A DNA stretch of 10,457 bases, from IMG/VR virus record IMGVR_UViG_2693429634_000018. One strand, 5' to 3'. The translations under genes were made by a program, and so were the position numbers. The notes beneath the pieces are model-generated. The model worked only from the letters and a program-made list of their open reading frames with translations, searched no databases and was not told where the DNA came from. Origin of the DNA: a virus (lineage: Duplodnaviria > Heunggongvirae > Uroviricota > Caudoviricetes). Below, piece after piece: positions 4,838-6,160 of the stretch (within the stretch, counting starts at the first letter, position 1; every line of letters starts with the position of its first letter).

Positions 4838-6160
4838 ATGGCAGTAAAGATTTCAGGTGTACTGAAAGACGGCACAGGAAAACCGGTAGAGAACTGCACC
4901 ATTCAACTGAAAGCCAGACGGACCAGCAGCACGGTGGTGGTGAATACGGTGGCCTCTGAAAATCCGGATGAAGCCGGTCGTTACAGCATGGACGTTGAGT
5001 ACGGTCAGTACAGCGTCATTCTGTTGGTGGAGGGCTTCCCGCCGTCACATGCCGGGACCATCACCGTGTATGAAGATTCTCAACCGGGGACGCTGAATGA
5101 TTTTCTCGGTGCCATGTCGGAGGATGACGTCCGGCCGGAGGCACTGCGCCGTTTTGAACTGATGGTGGAAGAGGTGGCGCGTCACGCAGAGGAGGCGAAG
5201 AAGAATGCCGGAGAGGCGGAGACGTCAGCGAGGAATGCCGGCATATCAGCCAGTCAGGCAGAAGAGGGCGCTGCAAATGCTGACACTTCAGCAGGGGAGG
5301 CATCGGAGTCAGCCCGGCAGGCGGCAGAAAGTGCAGCCGCTGCAAAGCAGTCAGAGGAAGCGTCCTCGTCCTCGGCCTCTGCGGCCGCTCAAAAAGCCAG
5401 TGAGTCATCACAAAGTGCAGCAGAAGCTGAATTGTCAAGAAAGACGGCAGAAAGTGCAGCCGGTAATGCAGCCAGGGATGCAACGACCGCAACAGAAAAA
5501 GCCCGGGAGTCAGCAGAAAGCGCACAGTCAGCGGAACAAAGCAGGATAGCGGCGGAAGAGGCCGTAAACCGAATCCCCACCGTGGTGGGGCCTCCCGGGC
5601 CAAAGGGGGAACCGGGTCCCGCGGGTCCTCAGGGGCCGAAGGGAGATAAAGGAGAGCGTGGCGACACCGGCCCGGCAGGGGCAACCGGTGAAAGGGGGCC
5701 GAGAGGAGATACTGGTCCGGCAGGCCCGCAGGGGCCGAAAGGCGACAGGGGAGAGCGGGGAGAGACCGGTCTGACGGGAGATGCAGGTCCACAGGGTCCA
5801 AAGGGAGATACCGGTGCGGCAGGCCCGGCAGGCCCGGCAGGCCCACAGGGACCGAAAGGAGAAACAGGTGCGGCTGGCCCGGTGGGGGCAACCGGACCTC
5901 AGGGACCGAAGGGCGACCCGGGGGAGACACAAATCCGTTTTCGTCTGGGGCCGGCGAGCATTATTGAGACAAACAGCAATGGCTGGTTCCCGGATACAGA
6001 TGGCGCACTCATCACCGGACTGACCTTTCTTGACCCCAAAGATGCCACACGGGTTCAGGGTTTTTTTCAGCATTTGCAGGTCAGATTTGGCGACGGGCCG
6101 TGGCAGGATGTCAAGGGGCTGGATGAAGTGGGCAGTGATACAGGCAGAACAGGAGAATGA
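4838..6160 (+). CDS. stf: Side tail fibre protein, Stf-like N-terminus with collagen-like Gly-X-Y repeat shaft and short C-terminal tip domain
   Basis: ORF whose N-terminus [89 protein letters not shown] resembles the lambda Stf N-terminal tail-attachment region. This is followed by an Ala/Ser/Glu-rich low-complexity shaft, then about 38 uninterrupted Gly-X-Y triplets, then a short C-terminal domain of about 80 aa. Start placed at ATG 4838; the six-frame ORF opens two codons earlier at GTG 4832. At 440 aa it is much shorter than lambda Stf (about 770 aa as I recall). Confidence 0.85.
5588..5923 (+). repeat. Collagen-like Gly-X-Y triplet repeat tract inside the tail fibre gene
   Basis: Translation [112 protein letters not shown] has glycine at every third residue. 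At DNA level it contains short tandem and dispersed repeats, for example caggcccgg repeated in tandem at 5820-5844 and cagggRccgaaRgg-like units at several positions. The repeats also generate the long spurious reverse-strand ORFs seen here. Confidence 0.9.

Follow-up and report, generated by a model that had tools for sequence, protein, structure and literature searches.

An intact EPclA-type collagen side tail fibre gene in a lambda-like E. coli prophage differs from a widespread allele by one in-frame repeat unit

What kind of protein does a phage gene with a long collagen-like tract encode, and does the repetitive DNA of that tract change length between isolates? We addressed these questions for a gene in a 10,457-nucleotide stretch of viral DNA (IMG/VR record IMGVR_UViG_2693429634_000018, Caudoviricetes), which we call the window and whose first letter is position 1. 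Side tail fibre genes with a collagen tract have already been characterised in lambda-like E. coli prophages, and the gene is an intact copy of one of these. Its product is very probably a homotrimeric side tail fibre of the EPclA type, belonging to a lambda-like siphovirus prophage that has integrated at tRNA-Arg (argW).

The fibre gene lies on the + strand at 4838-6160. Its open reading frame (ORF) is intact, running from an ATG at 4838 to a TGA at 6158-6160 and specifying 440 amino acids. An alternative GTG at 4832, two codons upstream, accounts for a 442-aa ORF listing; annotated relatives use the ATG. Pfam matched the protein to three families, in the order PF08400, PF01391, and PF06820, and PHROG tail-fibre families matched it as well. 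The N-terminal PfN domain (aa 1-133; 4838-5236, + strand) aligned with positions 1-133 of the 134-position PF08400 profile, "Prophage tail fibre N-terminal" (E = 3.4e-69), and is predicted to attach the fibre to the tail. It is followed by an Ala/Ser/Glu-rich segment, PCoil (aa 134-250; 5237-5587, + strand), in which 38 Ala, 22 Ser, and 17 Glu make up 66% of the 117 residues. The collagen-like domain, Col (aa 251-364; 5588-5929, + strand), is a single Gly-X-Y run of 114 residues with zero interruptions and Pro at 19 of the 38 X positions; it matches PF01391, and its best PDB sequence matches are collagen chains. Finally, aa 366-429 (5933-6124, + strand) form PfC, a conserved phage-fibre C-terminal domain that matches the full 64-position profile of PF06820, "Putative prophage tail fibre C-terminus" (Phage_fiber_C; E = 2e-36). 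PfC would be the trimerisation nucleus and is presumed to be the receptor-binding knob. A PDB sequence search with the fibre protein returned only collagen chains and the Stf N-domain of Ur-lambda, with none for PfC. For the C-terminal 86 residues (aa 355-440), AlphaFold2 produced a monomer model from a shallow alignment with a pLDDT of 66.6 and a pTM of 0.47, and all Foldseek matches of this model in the PDB had E > 1.

The DNA that encodes the collagen domain is itself repetitive. Tandem Repeats Finder identified a perfect 9-bp tandem repeat of CGGCAGGCC at 5817-5844 (+ strand; 3.1 copies, 100% matches), which encodes AGPAGPAGP and which, as described below, is a polymorphic micro-VNTR. The program also reported an array with a 54-bp period at 5784-5910. 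In addition, families of direct near-repeats of 17-59 nt, spaced by 36, 45, 54, 63, or 99 bp, extend across 5588-5916. A sequence-only reading of the window had anticipated much of this organisation. Its 440-aa protein with about 38 Gly-X-Y triplets agrees with our count, the Ala/Ser/Glu-rich segment that it placed before the collagen is PCoil, and the near-repeats that it mentioned are the families above. Its tandem caggcccgg at 5820-5844 is the 9-bp repeat in another register, encoding A-GPA-GPA-GP in frame. By contrast, the C terminus that it took to be short and unique proved to be the PF06820 domain.

Proteins with this layout have been described before. Ghosh et al. (2012, PMC3368898) cloned and biochemically characterised the EHEC prophage collagen-like protein A (EPclA; for example, ECs2717 of O157:H7 Sakai and ECO26_1634 of O26:H11), which has the four-domain layout PfN-PCoil-Col-PfC. 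By its sequence, the window protein is a member of this family. It carries all the defining sequence-level features of EPclA that we examined: PF08400, a PCoil of ~116 aa, an uninterrupted Col, and PF06820 rather than PfC2 or peptidase S74. Its sizes are also alike; ECO26_1634 is listed in Table 3 of that study with 440 aa, a PCoil of 116, and a Col of 114, compared to 440, 117, and 114 in the window fibre. The window protein shares 95-98% identity with 437- or 440-aa copies in phage and prophage records and 94-99% with many copies, and its gene occupies the same place as EPclA, after J and lom in a lambdoid prophage. As is characteristic of EPclA, this is a lambdoid prophage tail module (I-J-lom-fibre at argW) whose copies are >90% identical. 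The family, its structure, and the variation of its Col domains in three-residue steps (27 to 144 residues in the published table of EPclA-like proteins; PMC3368898) are thus already known, and such variation is common to EPclA and the window fibre. There is no difference in architecture between EPclA and the window allele, which has one 9-bp unit (one Gly-Pro-Ala triplet) more than the commonest near-identical allele.

The published experiments on EPclA suggest what the window protein would look like. Recombinant EPclA is a trimer, its Gly-X-Y region has the circular dichroism (CD) signature of collagen and a Tm of 42 °C, and its coiled coil melts at a Tm of about 52 °C (PMC3368898). CD and SEC-MALLS identified the 116-aa PCoil as a trimeric coiled coil, and PfC serves as a trimerisation module, able to renucleate the triple helix (PMC3368898). 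The molecule is a dumbbell of 55-60 nm with a hinged stalk (PMC3368898). By analogy, aa 134-250 of the window fibre would correspond to the trimeric coiled coil of Ghosh et al. The trimer, triple helix, coiled coil, and dumbbell, as well as the Stf N-domain collar described below, were all demonstrated by others on close homologues and are expected by analogy for the window protein.

We compared the window fibre with Stf, the side tail fibre of lambda. PfN is 83% identical over aa 1-128 to the same residues of lambda orf-401/Stf, and aa 1-93 match chain Ta of PDB 9E7M, the Stf N-domain of the Ur-lambda virion (E = 4e-53), which is its only solved relative. Beyond aa 128, the fibre gave no significant alignment to lambda Stf. 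Both genes follow J and lom. Lambda Stf (P03764) is 774 aa long and has a long proximal coiled-coil domain, a hinge, a gp37-like distal domain, an OmpC-binding tip, and Pf2 repeats, and it requires Tfa; the window fibre instead consists of PCoil, collagen, and PfC over aa 134-440. Pfam found no Pf2 repeats (PF03406) in the fibre protein, and no tfa-like ORF lies downstream, where 6432-6640 contains stops in all three + frames. Some relatives retain only a tfa fragment at this place. We looked for the tfa remnant annotated downstream of the fibre gene in O26 11368, and none was readable in the window. As it lacks the Pf2 repeats, the gp37-like distal domain, and Tfa, the window fibre is, judged by its sequence, not a full member of the lambda Stf family, with which it has only the attachment module in common. 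An Stf-type N-terminal region joined to another kind of shaft, as the sequence-only reading had it, is therefore what the gene encodes. Its description as a shortened Stf fibre held for the replacement of the distal fibre by collagen; "shortened" itself is misleading, as 38 triplets are near the long end of the family.

On the Ur-lambda virion, a collar of 12 StfN domains surrounds the junction between the gpV and gpM rings and gives rise to four trimeric side fibres, which speed adsorption although plaques form without them (Yu et al. 2025, PMC12617516). The window fibre presumably has the same collar attachment and accessory role in adsorption. Assembled into virions of the window prophage, as we would expect, 12 copies of PfN would make a collar at the junction of tail tube and tail tip, between the gpV and gpM rings, and support four trimeric fibres. 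The Gly-X-Y tract would fold as a collagen triple helix with a flexible hinge towards the coiled coil; at 2.9 Å per residue (the figure from PMC3368898), its 38 triplets correspond to ~33 nm and one triplet to ~0.87 nm. If PfC nucleates trimerisation, a Tfa-type chaperone would not be needed, and the absence of a tfa-like ORF fits with PfC as the fibre's own trimerisation nucleus. At the distal end, PfC would form a knob that may contact a host surface receptor and speed adsorption before J binds its own receptor.

A second family of collagen fibres bears on this model. EPclB, the lateral fibre of short-tailed Stx2 phages (Sp5 ORF67/ECs1228, 933W L0121, and phi24B gp61), has a coiled coil, a collagen shaft, and a PfC knob as in the window fibre, to which it is 86-87% identical over aa 273-440 (tblastn). 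Unlike the window fibre, which would belong to a lambda-like tail, EPclB is mounted on a podovirus tail adaptor/nozzle, where in Sp5 it is essential for infectivity (PMC5155283). In both cases a similar 89-aa ORF with PfC alone comes after the fibre gene. In the window this ORF (6162-6431, + strand; PF06820, E = 5e-36; phrog_576) begins 1 nt past the fibre stop codon, at a place conserved in relatives, and encodes a 27-aa leader and a second PfC domain that is 37% identical to the fibre's own. The Sp5 equivalent, ORF68, is non-essential (PMC5155283).

The surrounding genes place the fibre in a prophage late operon. On the + strand, a gpI-like gene (1-648), J (709-4107), and Lom (4174-4773) precede the fibre gene, and an NleG effector gene (6641-7288) follows the PfC-only ORF. 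On the - strand are an IS256-family transposase fragment (7490-7789), an IntS-type integrase (8032-9249), tRNA-Arg(CCT) (9375-9449), and yfdC (9525-10457). The order I-J-lom-fibre is that of the stf position in lambda, and the prophage is inserted at tRNA-Arg/argW. The J product and lambda J share 90% identity; the two hardly differ in roughly the first 960 aa and diverge in the C-terminal, receptor-binding part. The prophage therefore has a truly lambda-like tail. We considered whether a tail-fibre end beside an integrase was an oddity and dropped this idea, as the complete genome of E. coli E2 shows that prophages of this argW family are normally arranged in this way: a full Q-lysis-terminase-head-tail prophage, followed by J, lom, fibre, PfC ORF, effectors, intS, tRNA-Arg, and yfdC.

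Two sequences that resemble terminators bracket the fibre gene and the PfC-only ORF. Between lom and the fibre gene, at 4800-4831 (+ strand), a stem at 4800-4821 with 8 pairs (7 G-C) is followed by the T-run TTTTTGTGGG. Beyond the pair, at 6446-6480 (+ strand), an 11-pair stem at 6446-6470 is followed by TTGTTGTCAT. Both are consensus matches only, and the hairpin at 4800-4831 is a candidate terminator on this basis. Scanning the DNA 5′ of the fibre gene for promoters revealed no sigma-70-like site above shuffle expectation; we therefore assume late-operon antitermination for fibre transcription, such that the gene would be expressed from the antiterminated late transcript.

To determine how the collagen tract varies, we compared the window gene with its relatives. 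The exact fibre gene of the window was absent from 5,426 complete E. coli genomes, in which the best matches had 99.3% identity and were 1314 bp long, compared to 1323 bp in the window. Removing one CGGCAGGCC from the window gene yields the allele of O26:H11 11368 with no mismatches (0 of 1314; 100%). The window thus carries a variant with one unit more than a widespread allele. The two alleles are distinguished by unit number in this array and by nothing else (0 further differences in 1314 nt), as defines a VNTR. The longer allele is not confined to the window, as an identical 440-aa protein, encoded by identical DNA, was present in 7 public draft contigs. These represent two prophage contexts: the window's own locus (assembly GCA_001286185.1) and a prophage that carries NleL and EspN. 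Across 8.5 kb, one of the NleL/EspN contigs matches the O26:H11 11368 locus at 99.84% identity in an alignment with just two gaps, of which one is the 9-bp unit. The same NleL/EspN prophage locus therefore has two or three units in different isolates.

We extended the comparison to 45 complete EPclA genes, comprising those of the window, the O26:H11 11368 locus, and IMG/VR loci, with 36 distinct Col alleles. This count of Gly-X-Y triplets across orthologous fibre genes, which the sequence-only reading had proposed, gave a modal number of 37 and also 38, 36, 32, and 27; repeat number is not constant. Relative to the window, the indels among the 36 alleles are 9, 18, 54, or 99 bp, all in frame, and every one maps within 5727-5842 (+ strand). 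On different allele backgrounds, the micro-repeat is present in one, two, or three units. The 54-bp deletion is as long as the period reported by Tandem Repeats Finder, and the 99-bp deletion matches a direct-repeat spacing. Among representatives of 90%-identity clusters with intact PfN and PfC, Col ranges from 4 to 38 triplets, and the length of PCoil varies too. The forecast that the collagen tract would change length in frame between isolates is thus borne out, both by the two- and three-unit alleles at one locus and by the 27-38 triplets of related alleles.

These changes could arise in two ways, as replication slippage or unequal recombination within the repetitive collagen-coding DNA would each add or remove multiples of 9 bp. 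Alleles that differ by a single unit and are identical elsewhere bear the classic mark of slippage, which we infer produced the +9-bp allele. One alternative is that length changes arise mainly through homologous or unequal recombination and gene conversion among paralogous fibre genes, not through slippage. We consider this possible, although the less probable explanation. Paralogues are plentiful, as the number of matching places in E. coli genomes with the gene has a median of 2 and reaches 17. Recombination also moves the module: the J tip, lom, fibre, and PfC ORF (window 4024-6499) are 98.7-99.1% identical between two otherwise different prophages, compared to 76% for the J DNA upstream. 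The 54- and 99-bp indels correspond in length to the distances between imperfect direct repeats, as either mechanism predicts, and for these indels unequal recombination between paralogues is equally possible as slippage. The +9-bp variant, however, lies within a perfect tandem array, the unit is the sole difference in 1314 nt and almost the sole difference over 8.5 kb, so that a donor is unnecessary, and the one-, two-, and three-unit states occur on different allele backgrounds. For the one-unit change, these observations argue for slippage.

The closest functional parallel to a fibre whose length depends on repeat number is BclA, the exosporium filament protein of Bacillus anthracis. According to Sylvestre et al. 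(2003), as cited in PMC1479350, its collagen region is a VNTR whose copy number determines filament length, and BclA would be the best precedent on this point. Like that of the window fibre, this region is encoded in tandem repeats built on 9 bp. BclA differs in being a bacterial spore-surface glycoprotein with another C-terminal domain, and homology outside the Gly-X-Y region is absent (the match to 1WCK covers Col only). The word "slippage" does not occur in the EPclA study (PMC3368898), to which our one-unit example is only a small, illustrative addition.

An extra triplet might alter fibre function, and fibre length may affect adsorption. As one triplet is <3% of the collagen shaft, the +1-unit variant may also be neutral. 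A bolder and improbable proposal is that the tract is a true contingency locus, in which frequent slippage at 5727-5842 would vary the reach of the fibre (4 to 38+ triplets, about 3.5-33 nm) and selection would match its length to the depth of the host O-antigen or capsule. In this proposal, the co-transcribed 89-aa PfC-only ORF would be a donor cassette or a hetero-trimerising partner that alters the distal knob. What the data show is polymorphism and purifying selection.

We also asked whether the gene is still under selection. Compared to 34 distinct 437-aa alleles, dN/dS (Nei-Gojobori) was 0.16 overall, 0.07 for PfN, 0.50 for PCoil, 0.15 for Col, and 0.15 for PfC. The overall value argues against a pseudogene, and with an intact ORF under purifying selection, the truncated pseudogene that the sequence-only reading had raised against itself was not what we found. 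The fibre might nonetheless be a relic in a defective prophage, kept intact by chance or by gene conversion from paralogues and never part of infectious particles. The number of matching places per genome makes conversion possible, frameshifted or truncated copies are common at related loci (L014, L030, L044, L058, L064, L068, and L071), and Ghosh et al. also list defective "EPclA*" copies (PMC3368898). The IS256-family fragment lies nearby, and the source contig begins 58 nt upstream of the window, such that the integrity of the prophage is not visible from it. We regard the relic explanation as unlikely, since the full-length ORF has a low dN/dS; J, lom, fibre, and PfC ORF are each intact; the same site in a complete relative contains a full late operon; and full-length relatives occur in 141 deposited phage records, mostly of Stx1- or Stx2-converting phages. 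As lambda-family side fibres are dispensable for plaques, selection on them could be weak.

It is very improbable that the protein is instead a collagen-like adhesin on the surface of the lysogen, a "moron" like Lom or the T3SS effectors and comparable to Scl or BclA, for although the gene lies between lom and the NleG gene, bracketed by terminator-like hairpins, and bacterial collagen-like surface proteins exist, including BclA with its VNTR (Sylvestre et al. 2003, cited in PMC1479350), the fibre N terminus lacks a signal peptide or anchor and is the tail-collar domain of Stf, the structure of which has been determined on the lambda virion, the region upstream yielded no sigma-70-like promoter, and the homologous EPclB was localised to phage tail ends by immuno-EM (PMC5155283).

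A side tail fibre of the EPclA type thus remains the preferred identity of the window protein. Such fibres are carried by lambda-like prophages, among them Stx1- and Stx2-converting phages, which spread the genes for Shiga toxin and T3SS effectors from one E. coli strain to another; the receptor that a fibre recognises and how far it reaches are relevant to which strains can become lysogens. For the window itself, we mainly gain a clean annotation, namely an intact EPclA side fibre with a textbook one-unit in-frame repeat expansion; the collagen fibre is a correct but ordinary observation that was already known. In a scan of genome contigs, full-length matches were restricted to Escherichia, with fragments in E. 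albertii. We rejected PfN-only matches in Pseudomonas, Leeuwenhoekiella, Neobacillus, Bradyrhizobium, and others as evidence of a wider distribution; they are 83% identical over aa 1-128, the same as lambda, and probably represent contamination with lambda DNA. The remaining matches in the scan were to generic Gly-X-Y sequence.

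DNA spanning the J tip, lom, the fibre gene and the downstream ORF that encodes only a PfC domain (window 4024-6499) is 98.7-99.1% identical to an NleL/EspN prophage of O26:H11, whereas J DNA upstream of window 4024 is only about 76% identical to the same prophage. This contrast places a mosaic breakpoint at the module. The J tip, lom, the fibre gene and the PfC-only ORF thus move together between different prophages as a single recombination module. The J gene itself (window 709-4107) encodes a protein whose first ~960 amino acids are almost identical to those of lambda J. Its C-terminal receptor-binding region diverges from lambda J starting at about residue 975 (especially window 3630-4107, approximately), which implies that this J would recognize a receptor other than LamB or have altered specificity.

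The PfC-only ORF (window 6162-6431, + strand), which starts 1 nt past the fibre stop codon, encodes 89 amino acids: a 27-residue leader and then another PfC domain (PF06820, E 5e-36), which shares 37% identity with the PfC domain of the fibre. Relatives keep this ORF in the same place after the fibre gene. Its counterpart in the short-tailed Stx2 phages, Sp5 ORF68, is non-essential and was proposed to be a reservoir for C-terminal variation (Mondal et al., PMC5155283). In rare cases, the fibre and the downstream ORF are fused by read-through (proteins P0007 and P0011, 494 amino acids; locus L060:3001-4584, 527 amino acids), and the fusions end in ...WENIGGMK.

Other fibres differ in their C-terminal module. 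Homologs P0073-P0076, P0081-P0093 and P0097-P0108, which come mainly from Shigella, share the PfN-PCoil-Col arrangement, with Col tracts of 9-38 triplets, but have a peptidase S74 intramolecular-chaperone domain (PF13884) at the C terminus rather than PfC. The exchange point is the boundary between Col and the C terminus, the same boundary at which the module is swapped in EPclD, a prophage collagen-like protein class (Ghosh et al., PMC3368898). One of these Shigella peptidase S74-type fibres, P0089, is 85% identical to our fibre and carries, from its source, the name [quoted passage not shown]; this record is probably mislabelled or contaminated.

Seven related loci (L014, L030, L044, L058, L064, L068 and L071) contain frameshifted or truncated fibre genes. 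In several, the break falls inside the collagen or PCoil repeats; thus, out-of-frame changes also arise in these tracts. Two antisense ORFs span the PCoil/Col coding region (289 amino acids, window 5061-5930; 305 amino acids, window 5528-6445; both - strand). Ala/Ser/Gly/Pro codon periodicity most likely gives rise to both as a side effect. The lambda record also annotates an antisense ORF, orf206b, opposite orf-401.

The prophage cargo and attachment end (window 6641-10457) include an NleG-family T3SS effector gene (window 6641-7288), an IS256-family transposase fragment (window 7490-7789, - strand), an IntS-type integrase gene (window 8032-9249, - strand), tRNA-Arg CCT (window 9375-9449, - strand) and yfdC. 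In relatives at this site, NleH1-1/NleD takes the place of NleG.

When contigs were scanned for taxonomic range, PfN or fibre fragments were found in assemblies (L091-L100, L102 and L103) that are labelled Leeuwenhoekiella, Pseudomonas, Neobacillus, Bradyrhizobium, Chromatium, Vibrio, Xanthomonas and others. Many match residues 1-128 at 83%, a level equal to that of lambda Stf, and the fragments look like contaminating lambda or E. coli phage DNA.
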